A stretch of DNA of 62,968 nucleotides, counting the filler. It is 3 parts of 3 records of this genome, joined end to end, with 100 filler letters (N's around TTAATTAATTAA, not from the genome) between each part and the next. Parts side by side here need not be neighbours in the genome. Positions count along the whole stretch, not along the records: positions 49,762 to 62,968 come from DRR378314_77; 2 more parts are not named here. One strand, written 5' to 3'. The notes below the pieces were generated by a model. The model saw nothing but the letters and a program-made list of their open reading frames with translations, had not been told where the DNA came from and searched no databases. Position 1 is the first letter of the stretch. Every line of letters starts with the position of its first letter. The position numbers were made by a program, and so were the translations under genes. Of the stretch, positions 23,177-60,553 are shown piece by piece.

Positions 23177-23276
23177 NNNNNNNNNNNNNNNNNNNNNNNN
23201 NNNNNNNNNNNNNNNNNNNNTTAATTAATTAANNNNNNNNNNNNNNNNNNNNNNNNNNNNNNNNNNNNNNNNNNNN
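23177..23276. other. Artificial contig spacer
   Basis: N run with central TTAATTAATTAA (23221-23232), which gives stops in all frames. Confidence 0.98.
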
Positions 23277-49661: not shown

Positions 49662-49761
49662 NNNNNNNNNNNNNNNNNNNNNNNNNNNNNNNNNNNNNNN
49701 NNNNNTTAATTAATTAANNNNNNNNNNNNNNNNNNNNNNNNNNNNNNNNNNNNNNNNNNNN
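49662..49761. other. Artificial contig spacer
   Basis: N run with central TTAATTAATTAA (49706-49717). Confidence 0.98.
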
Positions 49762-50019: not shown

Positions 50020-50034
50020 GTACAAAATGCTACA
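50020..50034 (+). promoter_or_regulatory. Direct-repeat box GTACA-AAAT-GCTACA (TACA-N6-TACA), copy 1
   Basis: About 110 bp upstream of the S8 protease ATG; the same motif occurs at 56076 and 59655. Confidence 0.7.
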
Positions 50035-50143
50035 CGTTTTAGCGTCACTTTTAACCCTGCTTATGGTTGAATTGTTTGTACAAGCTTTGAATTACTATTC
50101 AGATTGCTTGAATAAATATAATCTAATTATCCAGGGGACACTT

Positions 50144-53100
50144 ATGCAAGTGAAGACAATTTCAATTGCTGTTGCTGCTGCAATATACAGCGCGAGTGCA
50201 GCTCATGCTGCTGACATTGAGAGTTATACAAAAGAGAATGTACTAAAAGCGCCTAATTTCACTTTAGAGCAAGTTCAGGCATTACAGAAAGAAATAAACT
50301 CAGTTGAACAACCAATCACTGAAGTAGCTGATCTTAACGTTCAAGTTAACGCACGTGGTGCGAAGTTCGTAGAAGAGAACTTAGAGGGTGAGCATATCTA
50401 CATTGTTCGGTTACGAGATGCATCAGTGAGTGTTGCTGCCAATACCCCGAACTCTCCACTAACTCGTGCGCTAACTGCTCCAAATTCAAAGTTATTTGAA
50501 CGAGGCCAAGCAACAAGTCGAGCGGTTATAACATATGAGAATGAACTAAAACAAAAACAACAACAGGTTTTTTCTGAAGTAAGCTCAGTTACTGGACGCA
50601 CTGAGATACGGCGTCAATTTACTAAAGCCATCAATGGTTTTTCTGTCAAAATGACAGAAAGTGAGGCCGCGCGCGTTGCAAACCTAGGCAGTGTTGCCTC
50701 TGTAATGCGTTCAAAGCATTACGATTTATTATCAGATGAAGGCCCAAAACAGATCAAAGCCGATGAGGTTTGGTCTGGTGCTGCCTCAAGTGCAGGCTTG
50801 AAGCTCAAAGGTGAAGGGCAAATTATTGGTATCATTGATTCAGGTGTCAATACTGATCACCCATCATTTGCCGATATCGGTGGCGATGAATACGATCACG
50901 AAAATCCATGGGGTAATGGCCAATATGTGGGGGATTGTGTTGAAGAACCTGAGCATGTTCAGTGTAATGATAAATTAATTGGTGTTCGTTCGTACGATGT
51001 AATTACTGATTCATATTCGGCAATGATCCCTGGTTGGCCTGCAATAGGCGAAGATTACGGTGGTCATGGTTCACATGTCGCATCAACGGCAGCGGGTAAC
51101 GTTATTAATAATGTGCCGTATATGGTTGCCGGCACTGGTGAAGAAATGGATGGTAAGGTGATCAAAGCAGATCTATTCCCTGAAATTTCGGGTGTTGCCC
51201 CTCATGCGAATATTATTTCATATCAAGTATGTCATTCAACAAATGAAAGTGATTACAGAGGGTGTCCTGGTGAAGCACTGGTTGCTGGGATTGAGGATGC
51301 CATTGGTGATGGGGTTGATGTTATTAACTTCTCAATTGGTGGTGCAGACTCAAATGTATGGGCTGATCCTGTGCAGTTAGCATTTTTATCGGCGCGCGAA
51401 GCGGGTATTAATGTCGCGGCGGCTGCAGGTAACTCTGGCGCTGATGTTTGCGGTGCAGCAGAATGTTTAGGTTATTTAGATAATTCATCACCTTGGCTTA
51501 GCCAAGTTGCAGCAACCACTCATGCTCGAAGTGTTGCAGTAGAAACGGCTGTTGAATATGCTGGTTTTGCAAATGATGAGTTTGGTTCAGAGATACCTAC
51601 TTGGTCGGACGCAGGTCTTGTAGGCGGTTCTATTAATGATCAAGAAATCACCGGCGTAGTGGTTTGGGCAAAAGATTACGAAGATTCAAATGGCGAGAAA
51701 GATTACAATGGATACTGCGTCAATGAATTCCCAGCCGGCACGTTTGATTTTTATAAAGATGGTACTGCAATCGATGGAGCTGCTGAAGGAGATACGAAAG
51801 TCCTGGTTGTTTGTCAGCGACATGCACCCAATGATCCTAACGGTAATGCTCGTACAGCGAAGTCTGATAACATAAAGTTGGGTGGTGCAGATGGCTTCAT
51901 CATGTTTAACCGTGATTCAGATCAAGGGACAGTTGCAGAGAGTTACTCTTTACCAAGTGTGCATTTTACATATGACCAATGGAATGGTGTGTGGCCAGAA
52001 GAAGGGCTAGCTGATTGGGTTGATAGCTATTCAGAAAAAGGCCATATGATCACAATAAAGCCAACCGTTATTGAACGCCGCATTAATGAAGAAGATGCTG
52101 ATTGGTTGGCTACATTCTCTTCGCGTGGACCTTCTTATTCAAATATTGAAGTACTTGCACCAACACTTTCAGCACCTGGCGTGAGTATATATGCAGCATA
52201 CTCAGACGAACACCCGTTTGTATCTACTCCTTATGGTGCAGATTACTCAATGAGCAGTGGTACATCAATGGCTTCACCTCATGTCGCTGGTGCTATGGCG
52301 CTGATCCGTCAAGCACATCCTGAGTGGTCTGCCGCTGAAGTACAATCGGCCCTCACAATGACTGCTGATAATGATGTTCAATATTATCGTTTAAATCAAG
52401 TTGGTGGTGATTCCGATAAAGCACAGATTTATCGTGCGGGTGCAGGGCGAATTAATGTTGCTAATGCCGTTCAATCTGGCTTGGTAATGGATGAAAGTGC
52501 AGAAAACTTCTTAGCAGCAGATCCATATAATGGTGGTACGCCACATAAGCTTAACTTACCAAACTTAGTTAACTTTTCATGTGCACCTGAGTGTCAATGG
52601 GTGCGTACGGTTAAAGCAACCAAAGATGGCACTTGGACAGTAAGTCACGAAGATGTGGTTAACTGGAGCTTTGATATGCGTAATCAAGCTGCGCAAAATG
52701 GTGTAAATATAGAGATCACGCCGAAGAGCTTTTCTCTGAAAGCAGGTGAGACTCAGACGATTGTTGTTAAAGCTTCTGTGATGGATACGCAAGATTGGTT
52801 TAGCAATTCAGAGGTTGAACTACACAGTAACTTAATCTTTGAAGCACAAGAAGTGGGTACTCCAAATGCGCATTGGCCAGTTGCATTTAAGTATGATCGT
52901 GGTGATCTTCCTTCAAGGTTAAACGCAGTAGCGCATGCTGACAATGACTCAATGATTGTAAAAGGCATAACAATACCTGCACTAGATGCGCCTGCTGCAA
53001 AGGCTTATAAGCCTGTTAAAGCAGAGCGTAAATCAGTGACACTTGAAAAAGATGACGACCGGGTATTCCCATGGGCACTTAATAGAAATGATGAAGTAGC

Positions 53101-56002
53101 GGCTGAAGAAATTATTGATGAAGCTGTACACTCAGGTTTTGTAACCGTTGAAGCGGGTGCTAAGCGGCTAATTGTCGAAGTGTTAGATGTTATCGAGTCA
53201 GAACTTGAAGGAAAGATTAATATCGGCAACCCTGGTGTGTATATCGGGAAAGACTACAATGGTGATGGTATTATTCAGCCTCAGGATGAAATTTTATGTG
53301 TTTCAACTCATACCATTTATGCCAACTTCTGTAATATCAATAACCCTGAAGAGGGTGAGTATTGGTATATGATTCACAATAATTACGAATCAAACTTAGC
53401 GGGTGTAGAAGAAACGTTTGAGTATGCGGTTGGGGTTGTAGGATCTGAAACTGCTGAGACGATAGACATTGCTCTTCCTGCAAGTGATGGTATTAATACT
53501 GTGAACATGAATATCACGTGGGATATGAAAATGGACCAAGGTGATGTTTACTACAGTATAATCGATGTAGGTACATCAGCTGTTAACGTTGGTAATTTAG
53601 GTTCTATTGCGTTTAAGCTCGAGCGCGATGTTAACCGAGTTCATCTTGATGTGCCGCAAACAAAAGCGAGTATGGGCGATACAGTACCCTATACTTTTGA
53701 AGTATTGGCCAATACTTCGGGCATAGATCGTAACTTCACCTTTACTGCAGATATTCCAGATGGCTTAACAATTAATGCTGAAAATGTGATGAGCTCACGT
53801 AAAGATTTGGACATTGAGGTTTCAGATGGGCAACTTATTATCTCTGGAGTGCAAGAAAATACAGCGGATGTAGCACCTGATTATATTGTAACAAACAACA
53901 TTACAGATGAGATGTGTCGTACACCTGATTTTGGTGGAAGTTCATCTGGGGGTTATGTAGATTTAAGCCAGTTTGGCTTATCGCCTATTCTGTCTGGTTT
54001 TGATGAACAAAATAATGTGACTTATCAGCGAGGTTATGCACTTCCAGTAGGAGCGTTATTTAGCGGAGTTGATCAAATTAGTTTGTATAACAATGCAGAT
54101 GCAAAAAATCTTAAGTATGGCATGTTAACCATTCGCGGTAACGGTAAAGTAGACTTCTCTGTCGGTAAGCACTTTTTCCCATTCCATGATAAATTTCCAT
54201 ACGATAATCAACCATACGAAGGCATTGGTGCACTTTGGCGTGGATGGTTCCCAGATTTTAGCAATGACTTCATGAGTGTTGGTTTAAGCAGCAATGAAGG
54301 GATTACGCTTGCAACAACAGGAACAGGTTGGGGGATTGTTGAATGGGATAATGCTGCAGATTACGGTGATCCAATTCGCAATCGTCAGACAGGTCAATAT
54401 GAATGGACAAAACGTGATAACTCATTTGATTTTGAAGTTATTTTCAATGCTAACACCCGCTTTGGAGATAATGAACATGAAATCTATTTGGCTTACGACA
54501 ATATAGATTTTGGTTCGACTGATACGCGCGGGAGTGTCGGTATTCAAGGCTTCAAAGGGCAACTATATTCATATGGTCCATTAGAAGGTTATTTAGGTCG
54601 TTCAATCGCATTTAATGATGTTGATAGCGTAGTCAAAGACGGGATGGTAATTTGCATGGATTACGTCGGTCCTGAGTCATCACAGTTTGAGGTCACTGCA
54701 TGGGCTGATGTAACTGCTAAATCGGCAGGTAAAGACTTAACCTTCAGTGCAAACATAGATGTTGAAGGCATGGAAACAATGCAATTGAAGCATATACTAT
54801 CAGTACCAAGTAATATCACTGTTGTTGAAATTGAAAATATGGCTACAACCGAAGAAACTGCAGTTTCATTTGACGTCCACCACATTGATGAAATGAATTC
54901 GAAGAATGAAATTTCAATTATCTCAGCTGATGTAACGTATGAAGTTGACGGTAACACAGTGACAATCACGCCAATCGATAATTTCTTTGGTGAGACTGAA
55001 ATTGAGGTTGTGGTATCAGATATCGAAAACCCAGCAGATAAAGCCAGCACCACGTTTATATTAACAGTGACAGGTGTGAGCGATGCACCGGTGGCAGAAG
55101 TCGCTACAACGGATGTGGTTATCACTGAGGGTGAAACAGTAACACTGGATGCATCAAGTTCACGTGATGCCGATGGCGATGAAATAACCTTTGCGTGGTC
55201 AGGTGCAGGTGTAATTGCTGATGCAACGGCTGCAATGACGACAGTATCTAGCTTAACAGCAGGTGATCATGTGTTTACGGTAACAGTGTCAGACGGTGAG
55301 CTTGAAGCAACAGCCATGGTCAATGTGAAAGTTGTCACAGTGGCAGAGCGCTTAAGCATCAGCGATATCAGTGCACTCACAGTGGATGAAGATAACACCG
55401 CAGAAGTTGCCGTTAACTTTGATAACCAACTTGGTAAAGAAACCGTTATTTCAGCGATGGCAGATAATGCAAGCGTTGAAGTGATGGGCCATGAAACTGG
55501 TTCAATGCTGAAGCTAACACCGGATACGAACTTTAATGACGACATTGAAGTAACAGTCATGGTTGCCTATGCCGATGAGCCAACAGCGGTTGCACAAACC
55601 ACATTTACATTAACAGTGAATGCTGTGAATGATGCACCTGTGGTAGAGTTAAGCGAGACGCATATCTATGTTCGTGAAGACCAAGTACCCACGTTAACAG
55701 CGTCAGCGACAGACCTTGATGGGGATGAGTTAAGCTTTACATGGCAAGGTCCGGGTAACATTGCAACGCCAAATGCTGCAAGTACACAAATCTCAGGTTT
55801 AGTACCGGGTGATTATGTGTATACAGTGACAGTAAGCGATGGCAGCGAGAGTGTATCGCAAAGCATGCAAGTGTCAGTGACAGCAGCCCCTGAAGTTGAT
55901 GACTCAGATGAAGATAACAACGACAGTGGTTCATTAGCCTGGTTAACCGTGTTAATGGCGGGCTTTGCAGGTCTAAGGCGCCGAGCTGCAAAACGTAAAT
56001 AA
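50144..56002 (+). CDS. Large extracellular S8 subtilase with I9 propeptide, PA domain, Ig/PKD-like repeats and GlyGly-CTERM-like anchor (1952 aa)
   Basis: Signal peptide MQVKTISIAVAAAIYSASAAHA after a GGGGA SD. Catalytic triad IIDSG / GHGSHVAST / SGTSMASPHVAG. DADGDEITFAW and DLDGDELSFTW repeats. C-terminus DSGSLAWLTVLMAGFAGLRRRAAKRK. Confidence 0.93.
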   Translation: MQVKTISIAVAAAIYSASAAHAADIESYTKENVLKAPNFTLEQVQALQKEINSVEQPITEVADLNVQVNARGAKFVEENLEGEHIYIVRLRDASVSVAANTPNSPLTRALTAPNSKLFERGQATSRAVITYENELKQKQQQVFSEVSSVTGRTEIRRQFTKAINGFSVKMTESEAARVANLGSVASVMRSKHYDLLSDEGPKQIKADEVWSGAASSAGLKLKGEGQIIGIIDSGVNTDHPSFADIGGDEYDHENPWGNGQYVGDCVEEPEHVQCNDKLIGVRSYDVITDSYSAMIPGWPAIGEDYGGHGSHVASTAAGNVINNVPYMVAGTGEEMDGKVIKADLFPEISGVAPHANIISYQVCHSTNESDYRGCPGEALVAGIEDAIGDGVDVINFSIGGADSNVWADPVQLAFLSAREAGINVAAAAGNSGADVCGAAECLGYLDNSSPWLSQVAATTHARSVAVETAVEYAGFANDEFGSEIPTWSDAGLVGGSINDQEITGVVVWAKDYEDSNGEKDYNGYCVNEFPAGTFDFYKDGTAIDGAAEGDTKVLVVCQRHAPNDPNGNARTAKSDNIKLGGADGFIMFNRDSDQGTVAESYSLPSVHFTYDQWNGVWPEEGLADWVDSYSEKGHMITIKPTVIERRINEEDADWLATFSSRGPSYSNIEVLAPTLSAPGVSIYAAYSDEHPFVSTPYGADYSMSSGTSMASPHVAGAMALIRQAHPEWSAAEVQSALTMTADNDVQYYRLNQVGGDSDKAQIYRAGAGRINVANAVQSGLVMDESAENFLAADPYNGGTPHKLNLPNLVNFSCAPECQWVRTVKATKDGTWTVSHEDVVNWSFDMRNQAAQNGVNIEITPKSFSLKAGETQTIVVKASVMDTQDWFSNSEVELHSNLIFEAQEVGTPNAHWPVAFKYDRGDLPSRLNAVAHADNDSMIVKGITIPALDAPAAKAYKPVKAERKSVTLEKDDDRVFPWALNRNDEVAAEEIIDEAVHSGFVTVEAGAKRLIVEVLDVIESELEGKINIGNPGVYIGKDYNGDGIIQPQDEILCVSTHTIYANFCNINNPEEGEYWYMIHNNYESNLAGVEETFEYAVGVVGSETAETIDIALPASDGINTVNMNITWDMKMDQGDVYYSIIDVGTSAVNVGNLGSIAFKLERDVNRVHLDVPQTKASMGDTVPYTFEVLANTSGIDRNFTFTADIPDGLTINAENVMSSRKDLDIEVSDGQLIISGVQENTADVAPDYIVTNNITDEMCRTPDFGGSSSGGYVDLSQFGLSPILSGFDEQNNVTYQRGYALPVGALFSGVDQISLYNNADAKNLKYGMLTIRGNGKVDFSVGKHFFPFHDKFPYDNQPYEGIGALWRGWFPDFSNDFMSVGLSSNEGITLATTGTGWGIVEWDNAADYGDPIRNRQTGQYEWTKRDNSFDFEVIFNANTRFGDNEHEIYLAYDNIDFGSTDTRGSVGIQGFKGQLYSYGPLEGYLGRSIAFNDVDSVVKDGMVICMDYVGPESSQFEVTAWADVTAKSAGKDLTFSANIDVEGMETMQLKHILSVPSNITVVEIENMATTEETAVSFDVHHIDEMNSKNEISIISADVTYEVDGNTVTITPIDNFFGETEIEVVVSDIENPADKASTTFILTVTGVSDAPVAEVATTDVVITEGETVTLDASSSRDADGDEITFAWSGAGVIADATAAMTTVSSLTAGDHVFTVTVSDGELEATAMVNVKVVTVAERLSISDISALTVDEDNTAEVAVNFDNQLGKETVISAMADNASVEVMGHETGSMLKLTPDTNFNDDIEVTVMVAYADEPTAVAQTTFTLTVNAVNDAPVVELSETHIYVREDQVPTLTASATDLDGDELSFTWQGPGNIATPNAASTQISGLVPGDYVYTVTVSDGSESVSQSMQVSVTAAPEVDDSDEDNNDSGSLAWLTVLMAGFAGLRRRAAKRK

Positions 56003-56028
56003 ACACCTCCTAAAGTATGTTATGAACC

Positions 56029-56053
56029 AAAGGGCCCTTAGAGGCCCTTTTTT
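56029..56053 (+). terminator. Intrinsic terminator after the S8 protease
   Basis: AAAGGGCC-CTTAGA-GGCCCTTTTTT. Confidence 0.88.
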
Positions 56054-56075
56054 ATTGCTATTACTGCGCAACGTA

Positions 56076-56090
56076 TGTAGCAAAATGTAC
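56076..56090 (-). promoter_or_regulatory. Direct-repeat box GTACA-TTTT-GCTACA, copy 2
   Basis: Plus strand reads TGTAGCAAAATGTAC; intergenic, about 176 bp upstream of the MipA-family gene. Confidence 0.7.
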
Positions 56091-56266
56091 CCTAAATTCC
56101 CTTTTTTAACTGGTGTGTTACATTAAAAGGAGAATAGACTAGGTGACGTAGCTAAATTATTTACATTCTTTTTTAGCTAAGGGTACTTTCAAAGAGTATT
56201 ATGTTGGTAGTTACAGATATAAGCATCAGCTGTAGATACACTGAAAAATAGGTGATTTGAAATTTT

Positions 56267-57112
56267 ATGTTAAAGCTTTTTGGCTTAATGTGTCTAGTCT
56301 CAATGGGAGCCAATGCGACTGTTCAAGATACGTTAAAGCAACAACAGTTAATAAAAAAATCGACATTACACGCCAGTATAACTGTGGGAGTTGGTGGTAT
56401 TCAAAATCCAGTCTTAAATTCAAAAAACTTCATATCCCTTATTATGCCTAATTTTTCATATTATGATGATAATTGGTTTATCGATAATTTTGCTGTTGGT
56501 TATAGCCTCTTTGAAAAAAATAACTTCTACTTTGATGTGGCTGGACGATTTAATGAGGATGGCTTTTTCTTTAAGTTAGACGGAATTGAGAAGCTGTTTG
56601 CCGCTGGGTCAGTTTCAGGTGGTTTTAAAGACAAAGCAAAGCCGTTAGTACCTGAAGAGCTATTAACGCCTATTGACCGTGATTTATCATATTTAGTGGG
56701 ATTGTCGTCAGGCTATGTTCTCTCTAATGGGTTGTTAGTTGAGCTTTCCTTGATGCATGACATTACAAATGTGCACAATGGGTATGAAGGACAGCTCAAT
56801 ATGTTCAAAACCTTTAGATTTGGTGAGTCATTATTTGGCCTCGAATTAGGTGTTACGTATAAAAGTCGTGATTTAATTGAATATTATTACACCGTAGGGC
56901 GCACTGAAGGATTGGTTAGAATACCTGACTATCATTCAGAAAAAGCTGTAAATTATCATTTAAAAGCCAGTTATACATACCCTTTATCGGATAGTTTTAG
57001 CGTTGATATTAATGTAAAGCATACCTGGCTAGATAGTGATTTAGTGCTCAAGCCAATGATCACAGATAATGCTTACTTTTCTGGTTTTGCAGGTATTACT
57101 TATCACTTTTAG
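56267..57112 (+). CDS. MipA/OmpV family outer-membrane protein
   Basis: Signal peptide, VGVGGIQNP, MPNFSYY, HDITNVHNGYE, LIEYYY, PMI, C-terminal aromatic beta-signal GITYHF. Confidence 0.85.
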   Translation: MLKLFGLMCLVSMGANATVQDTLKQQQLIKKSTLHASITVGVGGIQNPVLNSKNFISLIMPNFSYYDDNWFIDNFAVGYSLFEKNNFYFDVAGRFNEDGFFFKLDGIEKLFAAGSVSGGFKDKAKPLVPEELLTPIDRDLSYLVGLSSGYVLSNGLLVELSLMHDITNVHNGYEGQLNMFKTFRFGESLFGLELGVTYKSRDLIEYYYTVGRTEGLVRIPDYHSEKAVNYHLKASYTYPLSDSFSVDINVKHTWLDSDLVLKPMITDNAYFSGFAGITYHF

Positions 57113-58283
57113 GCCAGCGAATGGCAATATCAGCTCCCCCGGTTTCGACACTATTATCAAGTGAAATAAAGCCGCCATGCCAGCTAATTATTTGTTTTAC
57201 AATGTATAGCCCCAATCCGTAACCGCTAGCAAGGTTGTCTCTCTCACCTTGTTGAAATGGCTCAATCAAGGCCCTTGCATTGTTGGGTAAGCCTGAACCA
57301 TCATCAATAACATGTATAGTATAAAACTCATCGCAGGCACTAGTTGCGACTATAATTTCAGATTTTGCATACTTTGTTGCATTGATAAGCAGGTTCTGCA
57401 TTGCAATAGCCATAAAGCTTGCTTCACAATTAACCATGGCTAAATTGTTTCTTAAAATAAAATTTAGCCCATAAAGATCAAACTTATTAACTTCAGTCTC
57501 AATTAATTGGTTGAGATTAGTTGTGTATTGACTAAATACGCTGTGTTGATGCTCTAAGCGCGCAAATGAGAGGTACTGCTCTAAACGCAACTCAATTTCT
57601 TCAATATCTCGTTCTAACTGATCACGCTCTTCATCATTGTAATTTGAAATTGAAAGCGCGAATTGCATTCTAGTTAAAGGTGTACGAATTTCATGAGAAA
57701 TAATGCGGGATAAATCACTATGTAATTGAATAAAGTTTTCGATTCGCTCAGACATTTCGGTGAATGTGCCTGCAAGTGGTGCAATAGACGAGCTGGGCTT
57801 AATGGGTAGATTAAATTTTTCAGGTTTTTTACTAAAGCGCTTGGCAGCATTTTGTAAGATACTTAAATCACGGAAAACTGGGCGTATGAACAATAGAATA
57901 AGCCCACCTAGTAACAAGTAAAAGGTAATAAAGGCGAGCCAGTTTGTTGTTTGCGTAGGCGTTAAATTTATAGGGCCGATGCGGAAGTTTTTTTGTTTAT
58001 CACCCTTTAAGTAAACATATTGCTGCTGCTCTAGCGTAACCGTTAATATACCTTCATTCTCAAATTTTTCCCTCAAGTTACCCGAAAGGAATAGCTGAGA
58101 ATCATTTAATTCTTCTATTTTTTCTTCCTTATGCTCAATAAGCAATCTCAATTCTTTAACGCTCAACTGCACACTAAGAGGGGGGGATGAGAATAGATGG
58201 TTATAAAGTTGTCCAAATGCTAACACGAGGGCTATTAAGCTAATTGTAATGACAATATAGAGTTTTAAAAACTGTCTATTCAT
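57096..58283 (-). CDS. Membrane sensor histidine kinase (RstB-like)
   Basis: Two TM segments, HAMP, SHEIRTPLTR H-box, NLLINATKY, DDGSG, GYGLGL. Confidence 0.93.
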   Translation of the reverse strand: MNRQFLKLYIVITISLIALVLAFGQLYNHLFSSPPLSVQLSVKELRLLIEHKEEKIEELNDSQLFLSGNLREKFENEGILTVTLEQQQYVYLKGDKQKNFRIGPINLTPTQTTNWLAFITFYLLLGGLILLFIRPVFRDLSILQNAAKRFSKKPEKFNLPIKPSSSIAPLAGTFTEMSERIENFIQLHSDLSRIISHEIRTPLTRMQFALSISNYNDEERDQLERDIEEIELRLEQYLSFARLEHQHSVFSQYTTNLNQLIETEVNKFDLYGLNFILRNNLAMVNCEASFMAIAMQNLLINATKYAKSEIIVATSACDEFYTIHVIDDGSGLPNNARALIEPFQQGERDNLASGYGLGLYIVKQIISWHGGFISLDNSVETGGADIAIRWPKSDK

Positions 58284-58960
58284 GGCTCAGTTATGTCCAA
58301 GCTATACCCTTTGCCACGAACTGACTTAATATCTAAGGATGCGTGTTGGTTTTCAAATAGCTCTTTAAGCTTTTTGCGTAACCGGCTTATTTTTAAATCA
58401 ATGGCTCTGTCTAGACCATTATATTCACGACCAATTACATGTTTAAATAATACTTCTCTCGATACCGGTTGAGGGCTATTTTTTACTAAAAATGAAATGA
58501 TTTCAAACTCGTTTTCATTTAGCTTCAGTGGGGTATTTAGAAATACGGCGTCGCGCTTTTTGGCATCAATATATAAATTTTGTGAGTCTTTATTAAACTC
58601 TTGTTGTTGGCTGATAATATTTTTCACTTTTGCCAACAATAATTCTGGTCGGATAGGTTTAACTAGGTAGTCGTACGCGCCTAATTCTAGTCCCTTAATT
58701 TGTGATTGAATGGAATCCAGTGCTGTTAAAAATATCACCGGGCACTGATGATTTTTTCTCAAATCTTCAATTAGTGCAAAGCCATTACCGTCAGGGAGCA
58801 TTACATCGCAGATAATTAAAGTGGGGTTAAACATAATGTCATGGTCATTGTAGCTTTGTGCGGTATTAAATACATCAACCGTATATTTTTGTTTTAATAA
58901 AAATTTTTTTATTAAAGTGGCAAGCTTTAAGTCATCTTCAATAACAAATATATGGTGCAT
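58280..58960 (-). CDS. OmpR-family response regulator (RstA-like)
   Basis: IEDD, CDVMLPDG, FLTA, DYLVKP, REYNGLDRAIDLKISRLRKK, SVRGKGY. Confidence 0.93.
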   Translation of the reverse strand: MHHIFVIEDDLKLATLIKKFLLKQKYTVDVFNTAQSYNDHDIMFNPTLIICDVMLPDGNGFALIEDLRKNHQCPVIFLTALDSIQSQIKGLELGAYDYLVKPIRPELLLAKVKNIISQQQEFNKDSQNLYIDAKKRDAVFLNTPLKLNENEFEIISFLVKNSPQPVSREVLFKHVIGREYNGLDRAIDLKISRLRKKLKELFENQHASLDIKSVRGKGYSLDITEP

Positions 58961-59394
58961 TATAAACTCCAGCCAAATCGGCGCTTGATGCGATAATCAC
59001 TTGCTTTGTAACGAGCAATTGATAACTCTTGCTCTTTAACAACTTTGTTGGTCAGAGGATCAATAAGTTGTATTTTTATAGAGTGAGAGGTTTGTAATTT
59101 TAAGTGCTCTTTAATTACCCCTTTTTTAGTGTAGCACTGTGTGTATTGTGGAAGGTTTGTTATTTCAAGACATAGTTCTTTAAAGGGCGCCAAAGTAAAA
59201 TTAATTTTTATGTTGAATTGGCAAATTTTTTGTTCTGATTCGGTCACACATACTGATGGAGAAACCTCTAAATAAGGTTTATCAACAGGCTTTGCCAAAG
59301 CGTACATGCTACAAAATACACTACATAATACTGTAATGTAGTAGATTGACTTTTTAATTTTATCGAAGATTTTAAAACCCTTAGGGTAATTCAA
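58960..59394 (-). CDS. Exported Cys-containing protein (DUF3019-like)
   Basis: TTG start 8 nt after AGGTG, signal-like segment, VSPSVCV...C...LC...C, basic RRFGWSL tail; TAATG-coupled to the response regulator. Confidence 0.75.
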   Translation of the reverse strand: MNYPKGFKIFDKIKKSIYYITVLCSVFCSMYALAKPVDKPYLEVSPSVCVTESEQKICQFNIKINFTLAPFKELCLEITNLPQYTQCYTKKGVIKEHLKLQTSHSIKIQLIDPLTNKVVKEQELSIARYKASDYRIKRRFGWSL

Positions 59395-59654
59395 AACTGA
59401 TACACCTAAATAATTGGCAGCAGAGTTTCTAATAATGGACTTGCTGCCTACGTCTCTTTCTATTATTTATTCTTAACGTATTATCAAATAATGCTAGTTA
59501 ATCCGACTTAAATATCCGAAGGAAAAATAGTTTTCCTATTTTTCACACGTGTATTCAAGCTAGCGAACTTATTGTACTTCCACCAATAGGCTTATATTAC
59601 GCAACTTGAATAGAGAACCAGTGTCACCTATTTTCCGCGAGTTGTTAACTACTT

Positions 59655-59669
59655 GTACAAAAAGCTACA
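59655..59669 (+). promoter_or_regulatory. Direct-repeat box GTACA-AAAA-GCTACA, copy 3
   Basis: In the divergent intergenic region between the DUF3019-RR-HK operon and the DUF3581 gene. Confidence 0.7.
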
Positions 59670-59848
59670 TTTTATTATACGCAGTGCTAATTAATAATAT
59701 TTATTTTAGGCGTTGGCCATACTGTATTTTAAGTTATGCAAGAAAGTGACTGTAAGGTCATAAACAAAACTTTAACAGATTCGACCTCTATTGTATTTTT
59801 ATCTGGTAGTATAGTCAGGTTATAAGCAGTTTAAGTAGTGAACAAACA

Positions 59849-60553
59849 ATGTTAAGTCCTTATTATCAGCAACATGCTGACTATGTCTCTATTTCTCGCG
59901 AGCAAGGTTGCCGCTTTGCTAAGTGTGTAGCTGATGATTACAACCCGCTTCATGATAAAGACGCAAAGAAATTTTGTGTACCCGGAGATCTATTGTTTTC
60001 GTTGGTATTAAGTAAGTATGGTATCAGTGAAAGAATGGAGTTCACCTTTGCAGGTATGGTGGATGAAAATTCAAAACTTCATTTCCCACCCGGAGCAAAT
60101 GAGTTTGATATTACAAGCGGTGAAAAAGTCATGCTTAAAGTTAAGCGTGAAGGGAAAACAAGCCAGTGTGAAACACTCACTAACAGTCTGATAAAAAATT
60201 ATGTAGAGTTTTCTGGCACTACGTTTCCACATGTCATCATTCCACTTATGGGTAAGCAAGATGTTATGATAAACCCGGCTAGGCCGATGGTTATTTATGA
60301 GTCTATGTTGATAAACCTCGATACATTGGATATCACAGCACCAACATTAGAATTTGCTGAACCTGATTTCGAATGTGCTGGTAAGCGAGGTAAAATAACC
60401 TTGCGATTTAATTTGCTTGAAAATGGCAGTAAGGTGGGATCAGGAGAAAAACATATGGTCGTATCAGGCATAAGAGAATATTGCCAAGCGACCGTTGACG
60501 ATTTGATTGCATTTTACAACGAGCGTAAAGAAACGCTTAAGCCCGTAGCTTAA
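59849..60553 (+). CDS. DUF3581-like protein
   Basis: FAK.VADDYNPLHD.DAKKFCVPGDLLF, YV.FSG..FP, MINPARPMVIYESM. Confidence 0.78.
   Translation: MLSPYYQQHADYVSISREQGCRFAKCVADDYNPLHDKDAKKFCVPGDLLFSLVLSKYGISERMEFTFAGMVDENSKLHFPPGANEFDITSGEKVMLKVKREGKTSQCETLTNSLIKNYVEFSGTTFPHVIIPLMGKQDVMINPARPMVIYESMLINLDTLDITAPTLEFAEPDFECAGKRGKITLRFNLLENGSKVGSGEKHMVVSGIREYCQATVDDLIAFYNERKETLKPVA

Follow-up and report, generated by a model that had tools for sequence, protein, structure and literature searches.

The stretch of DNA analysed here (the window, 62,968 nucleotides at its full length) carries, between positions 50020 and 59669, a gene for a giant S8 subtilase, a gene for a MipA/OmpV-family outer-membrane barrel (mipA), and a convergent operon encoding a DUF3019 protein, an RstA-like response regulator (RR) and an RstB-like sensor kinase (HK). 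An earlier examination of the letters alone (the sequence-only reading) had presented these genes as an undescribed trans-envelope signalling system. Its account of what lies there, namely a giant GlyGly-CTERM subtilase, a MipA-family gene and a coupled DUF3019-RR-HK operon, was borne out by profile searches and by the TAATG and ATGA overlaps at the gene junctions of the operon. On balance we slightly favour a reading in which a single trans-envelope signalling module is made up of MipA, DUF3019, the kinase and the regulator, with this copy controlling extracellular proteolysis.

Genes at the locus

The S8 protease gene (50144..56002, plus strand) encodes 1952 amino acids (aa) with a signal peptide, an I9 prodomain, an S8 domain (PF00082, 133 bits in a Pfam profile search), PKD/Big_9 repeats and a GlyGly-CTERM tail. 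The catalytic triad D232/H308/S708 is intact, with motifs at 230, 308 and 705, and the closest relatives in the PDB are 7eox and plant cucumisin-type subtilases. Translation likely starts at ATG 50144 rather than at GTG 49970, since a signal peptide is present and homologues start likewise; with the start at 50144, the first of the boxes described below lies upstream of the gene. GlyGly-CTERM proteins such as VesB are clients of rhombosortase (PMC3237569, PMC6219818). Similar to these clients, the C-terminus of the S8 protease scores above the TIGR03501 cut-off (22.3 bits vs 15.5), and the nearest genome, G001, encodes a rhombosortase (TIGR03902, 149.5 bits vs a cut-off of 84). The protein differs from them in being an S8 enzyme near 7eox and the cucumisin type, and its processing is predicted.

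The mipA gene (56267..57112, plus strand; 281 aa) matches PF06629 with 96.9 bits against a gathering cut-off of 24.2, and matches the Vibrio OmpV equivalog NF045789 with 65.2 bits, under its cut-off of 400. The predicted structure is a 12-stranded barrel (predicted local distance difference test, pLDDT, 87) with a short hairpin (53-56/59-66) and the conserved acids D56 and D73 in mature numbering; its net charge is -8 (family median -12), and its best PDB fold matches are Tsx and FadL at roughly 10% identity. On the minus strand, the kinase gene (57096..58283; 395 aa, two transmembrane helices and a periplasmic domain of about 89 aa at residues of roughly 25-113) and the regulator gene (58280..58960; 226 aa, OmpR family) have as their best NCBIfam matches RstB NF007898 (162.2 bits) and RstA NF007977 (142.1 bits). 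These scores are under the equivalog cut-offs (478 and 330, respectively), thus making the pair paralogue-level relatives of RstA/RstB. The regulator tree was a quick one with long branches, and no order of events is drawn from it.

The DUF3019 gene (58960..59394, minus strand; 144 aa) encodes a protein with a signal peptide that matches PF11456 with 59.5 bits. Its model is an Ig-like beta-sandwich (pLDDT 82) with a free C-terminal tail. Across the 150 rows of the family alignment, four cysteines are invariant in all 150, the sub-terminal tryptophan is conserved in 98%, and the last 14 residues average a net charge of +4.9. A fold search retrieved no match at E<=0.001, and structural likenesses were to generic Ig-like sandwiches only (Z 9.0, rmsd, the root-mean-square deviation, 10.1, 97 residues aligned; Z 8.6, rmsd 2.9, 87 aligned). 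An Atlas search retrieved DUF3019 clusters and one unnamed lead, nothing else. Fused forms of 273-2000 aa numbered 0 among the 8,000 candidates scored, which is weak evidence.

A shared box and its conservation

The sequence-only reading had also claimed a common 15-bp box upstream of all three transcription units, and this held. The pattern GTACAWWWWGCTACA has three exact matches in the window, with none further at one mismatch, against a chance mean of 0.10; three were reached in 0 of 100 shuffles. Box 1 (50020..50034, plus strand) precedes the S8 start by 110 bp and is forward relative to that gene, while box 2 (56076..56090, minus strand) and box 3 (59655..59669, plus strand) are reversed relative to mipA and to the DUF3019-RR-HK operon, respectively. 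All three fit the RstA box, TACA-N6-TACA (PMC4117788). The pattern was built from these three sites, so independent support comes from conservation in other genomes, where box 1 is kept before orthologous S8 genes, box 2 in orthologous loci and box 3 in loci of the split type. Box 3 also lies, in the forward direction, 180 bp 5' of a DUF3581 gene (window 59655-59849), and control of that gene is possible.

Of 140 genus genomes, 31 have matches to the MipA protein of the window at E<=1e-30, 33 in total, and the giant S8 gene adjoins 28 of these 33 mipA loci, with two others on truncated contigs. In 13 of the 33, the S8 gene diverges from a mipA-DUF3019-RR-HK operon and both read from a common promoter region that holds the box (a weak one in L097). 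Another 16 have the split arrangement of the window, and one has no S8 in this layout count. DUF3019 is translationally coupled to RR-HK in all 16 split loci. Most undivided loci have a single box, and loci with a split unit have three: leaving G001 aside, 15 loci are of the split type, and a box precedes DUF3019 in 13 of them and mipA in 14, with L068 lacking it at either gene and the sequence of L075 ending before the DUF3019 promoter. Tandem S8 duplicates keep one box each. The S8 gene of L093 and the regulator gene of L062 are each split into two open reading frames (ORFs), by possible decay or assembly error.

The reverse test started from the S8 protease and used the best 76 of 417 relatives' loci, with at least 49% identity counted as close. 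Among the 34 close loci, 29 have MipA, 26 have MipA and DUF3019, and 30 have the box; among the 42 distant loci, each of these counts is 5. The close loci belong to Pseudoalteromonas, Shewanella, Thalassotalea, Colwellia, Rheinheimera and Pseudidiomarina, with one unclassified. Several loci come from genomes that had been counted before. MipA is missing from five close loci, four of which stop at a contig or fetch edge. Judged from gene content, S8, mipA, DUF3019, RR and HK are a conserved marine-bacterial unit.

The four-gene cassette

The co-occurrence of MipA, DUF3019, RR and HK with an adjacent cargo gene, which the sequence-only reading had put forward for a neighbourhood survey, was found across six genera. 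Each of the 61 genus genomes searched has DUF3019, with between 2 and 6 matches, as do 92 of 121 family genomes and 8 of 400 class genomes, and the family comprises 1,189 clusters at 50% identity. The cassette loci are a chosen subset of the DUF3019 hits in which accessory copies were favoured. Within this subset, MipA lies within three ORFs of 142 of 143 distinct DUF3019 genes (the sole exception being cut at the locus edge) and directly upstream of 118, and RR and HK are also near in 125. The neighbouring cargo varies by clade, from PF00144 serine hydrolases, which keep the catalytic motifs SxxK, YxN and HxG, to PF09826 beta-propellers, S8 proteases and others. The protease is thus one among several cargoes found with this cassette.

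Many paralogous cassettes have TACA-N6-TACA variants of their own upstream of mipA. A large clade diverges from a PF09826 beta-propeller gene (L019-L027, L029, L030, L032-L035, L041-L045, L056, L057, L064, L103), many of its members with a distinct box variant. Pairs of mipA and DUF3019 standing apart from RR and HK are seen at L028, L031, L039, L051 and L208-L210, several followed by an intact PF00144 lipoprotein gene, and at L208-L210 a box lies between DUF3019 and the next gene. The Shewanella oneidensis genes SO_3302-3306 may be a further cassette locus; their tags gave no papers.

A candidate regulon of secreted proteases

Across all 4.5 Mb of the nearest genome, exactly three matches to a related pattern occur, all at this locus, against 0 for the control, and a scan at one mismatch gave no further sites (2 vs 5 in the control). 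The regulon in that genome appears to be restricted to this locus, and the wider regulon is visible only in relatives because the nearest genome has neither further sites nor the box-linked metzincin described below. Among the genus genomes, the strict box is found in 39 of 140 (29 of the 31 with the cassette and 10 of the 109 without), and the reversed control pattern in 18 of 140.

Genomes with the cassette have 28 distal sites, meaning boxes beyond the cassette loci that were retrieved, and 22 of these were examined. Fourteen of the 22 are upstream of secreted proteases, comprising four giant S8 genes (two of which are probably the cassette's own, on broken contigs), two operons with a different S8 and eight metzincin-like operons; two more are upstream of TonB-dependent receptors. 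In the metzincin operon (L218:3100-6332), the box precedes genes for two proteins: an unannotated secreted one of 203 aa, and a metzincin-like one of 873 aa that has the zinc motif and matches PF00413 slightly under the cut-off (E 6e-5). This metzincin occurs in 13 of 140 genomes, all within the 31 that bear the cassette, in up to three tandem copies, some with a variant box. A further box-led operon (L105:7075-11685, L230:3086-7668) encodes an unannotated protein of 179-184 aa, by eye like the N-terminal region of the S8, and a 1,323-1,326-aa S8 of another type. The box in the gap between rplI and pilE, seen in five genomes (L219:3003, L223, L228, L232, L233), is exact and is reversed relative to the pilE-like minor pilin gene, as at mipA; a link to type IV pili is possible.

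The footprints and the phylogenetic profile together give good support to the earlier proposal that the regulator would induce the protease and its own components, and we regard a regulon of the S8 gene, mipA and the regulator's own operon as very likely.

Predicted contact between MipA and DUF3019

An interface between MipA and DUF3019, another check that had been suggested, was predicted: the complex model reached an interface score (interaction prediction score from aligned errors, ipSAE) of 0.75 in three runs, with none of the three controls above 0.00. The runs share at least 68% of contacts, with a partner pLDDT of at least 75. Of 78 solved complexes, 51 attain the mark used, against 2 of 108 mismatched pairs. 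Two of the three outcomes that the sequence-only reading had named as refuting it, a lack of co-occurrence and a lack of predicted interfaces, thus did not arise. The confident interface joins DUF3019 residues 99-106 (plus 16, 93 and 95) to the N-terminus of MipA and to alternating residues of several strands, a register from which we infer that the tail would enter the lumen of the barrel from its periplasmic side. The basic tail (mature residues 99-110) is encoded at 58963..58998 on the minus strand. MipA residue 56 is modelled in contact with DUF3019 residues 103 and 104, and MipA 73 with DUF3019 104. The DUF3019 tail has K103, R104 and R105 at these and the next position. MipA is acidic at 56 in 94% and at 73 in 68% of 82 rows, and DUF3019 is basic at 103 in 81% and at 105 in 76% of the 150 rows.

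The alignments of this analysis were not input to the complex model, and recall of a solved complex is unlikely as its source because the barrel fold search gave no close solved relative. The model supports MipA-DUF3019 binding, which we consider likely, without telling which paralogue binds. Inter-protein covariation over 126 paired cassettes was swamped by clade-defining columns and was uninformative for both DUF3019-kinase and DUF3019-MipA. With the regulator signal removed, distance correlations were modest (0.15, 0.28 and 0.52), and binding and co-inheritance are inseparable in them.

Comparison with published systems

Pseudomonas aeruginosa MipA is a 12-stranded acidic barrel on whose periplasmic side MipB docks through a basic surface. 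Its gene is activated by the OmpR-type two-component pair ParRS, and two-component genes lie beside most mipA loci (PMC10936184). The locus here likewise has a MipA-family barrel, a candidate periplasmic partner with a basic surface, and a linked OmpR-type pair. Here the partner has 110 aa, is Ig-like and lacks a lipobox, whereas MipB is a lipoprotein of about 600 aa with a beta-lactamase fold; the predicted contact is a linear basic tail, and the putative output is secreted proteases rather than MexXY efflux. No MipB-type gene (a lipoprotein with an inactive beta-lactamase fold and two C-terminal barrels) is present at the locus. The idea that DUF3019 corresponds to a MipB C-terminal barrel is unsupported, as the fold searches gave generic Ig-like sandwiches only.

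The Vibrio cholerae carR-carS-ompV-virK locus (PMC12012098) also has four genes, for an RR, an HK, a MipA/OmpV barrel and a putative mediator, and the short strands of the OmpV barrel, proposed there as a lateral gate, have a likeness in the hairpin of MipA. It differs in having VirK instead of DUF3019, in a barrel to which the one here is related by 65 bits on the OmpV model, in its output (almEFG and vexAB vs probable proteolysis), and in that the cassette here is multi-copy with variable cargo. None of the seven window proteins scanned matched the VirK family, and the fourth gene is PF11456. Relative to RstA/RstB, the locus shares the best family matches and the box, and differs as a paralogue-level pair with a small private regulon. 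A MipA/OmpV gene also belongs to the Burkholderia BesRS regulon (PMC9426598).

Barrel-assisted activation of RstAB-like pairs is thus already in print (PMC10936184, PMC12012098), and "undescribed system" was too strong; the DUF3019 adaptor and the protease output are the parts for which we found no description. Among openly available main texts, we found no paper naming DUF3019, no occurrence of PF11456 in the papers listed for it, and no paper linking such a cassette to proteases.

Proposed mechanism and alternatives

Given this precedent, we propose a relay like MipAB/ParRS and OmpV/CarRS. DUF3019 would be exported to the periplasm, where its basic tail is predicted to dock in the acidic interior of the MipA barrel. 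An outside peptide cue might bind the barrel and shift or displace the tail, by analogy with polymyxin, which is proposed to bind an acidic pocket of P. aeruginosa MipA and V. cholerae OmpV (PMC10936184, PMC12012098). A peptide as the cue is plausible, if slightly short of an even call. DUF3019 may then alter kinase activity through the periplasmic domain, a step suggested by gene coupling only; we think a relay from DUF3019 to this kinase rather probable. According to the footprints, the phosphorylated regulator would bind TACA-N6-TACA and activate its own operon together with mipA and the S8 gene; its targets in relatives would also include other secreted proteases and TonB receptors. Rhombosortase would sort the protease to the surface, as established for the family, where it may release more peptide in a positive feedback.

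If the relay holds, it extends a barrel-sensing design previously tied to antibiotic-peptide resistance toward surface proteases, giving the DUF3019 family a candidate function and the surface proteases of marine protein degraders a candidate inducer pathway. Neither published system settles how a signal crosses the periplasm from MipA/OmpV barrels, and a 110-residue adaptor makes that question testable, in a harmless marine species, through a specific predicted contact (between a basic tail and two conserved acids) and a simple protease read-out.

A tentative extension, which we would hold less likely than the relay itself, is that MipA and DUF3019 together act as a general ligand-displacement receptor: mimicking a cationic peptide, the basic tail would fill the pocket of the barrel until driven out by a peptide from outside, and the freed DUF3019 would activate the kinase. 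It is similarly conceivable, and as doubtful, that marine Alteromonadales use paralogous copies with differing barrels and cargo hydrolases for different substrates, this copy sensing the products of protein breakdown and, with neither TonB nor a sigma factor involved, inducing a regulon for proteases and uptake.

Several observations weigh against the signalling module. The S8 gene is absent from three orthologous mipA loci (L054, L081, L084), a close S8 locus (L133) has the box yet no cassette within 10 kb, and three genomes have RR and the orthologous kinase about 25 kb off from S8, mipA and DUF3019, with DUF3019 still by mipA (L069-L071, L107, L108). Five of the 22 distal sites fall in the pilE/rplI gap and one inside an ORF, and 7 of 44 blind neighbour pairs likewise reach the complex-model mark. 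The counts overstate support because kin are not independent. Finally, mipA and DUF3019 occur without adjacent RR and HK in 10 distinct loci.

The last of these points also favours the main rival, namely that the kinase senses directly and the regulon has MipA and DUF3019 among its outputs, perhaps as a plugged channel, or as a barrel and its assembly or stability factor. Both genes carry the box and so are targets either way, V. cholerae almG is still induced without ompV (PMC12012098), and indolicidin activates ParRS without binding MipA (PMC10936184). However, 125 of 143 cases keep all four genes in one group even as the cargo varies, which fits a sensing module better than an effector, the coupling of DUF3019 to RR-HK persists in the 16 split loci, and deletion of mipBA in P. 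aeruginosa phenocopies parRS for mexXY induction (PMC10936184). We consider this rival unlikely.

Somewhat less likely again is that the same relay serves defence, with the barrel sensing cationic antimicrobial peptides or envelope damage and the proteases induced to destroy peptides. Both characterised relatives respond to polymyxin (PMC10936184, PMC12012098), MipA is net acidic with a short hairpin resembling the proposed lateral gate, and paralogous cassettes flank serine hydrolases with intact motifs. Against this, 0 of the 22 distal sites precede efflux or lipid A modification genes, and proteases of unrelated families together with TonB receptors suit feeding; because of this regulon make-up, a feeding cue is weakly favoured over a defence cue.

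A further rival, which we hold very improbable, is that the box is read by another RstA-like regulator, from a paralogous cassette or global, and that the protease travels as a passenger with a mobile cassette. In its favour, paralogues carry similar boxes, and the nearest genome has three cassettes, two of them paralogous RstA-like ones that might read the same box, a point that also counts against the signalling module. Against it, this flavour of box is at background in the 109 genomes without this orthologue even though all 61 genus genomes searched carry DUF3019, and the association with S8 persists in six genera and through several gene orders.

Surroundings of the locus

A terminator-like hairpin between the S8 gene and mipA (56029..56050, plus strand) is a consensus match only, in a region where terminator scans do not exceed chance. 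The N linkers at 23177-23276 and 49662-49761 are joins of separate contigs, so genes left of the latter are not established as neighbours of the locus. The ORFs left of 23 kb give the impression of a different organism, and upstream of the S8 gene the window has EAL and glycogen genes where G001 has others.

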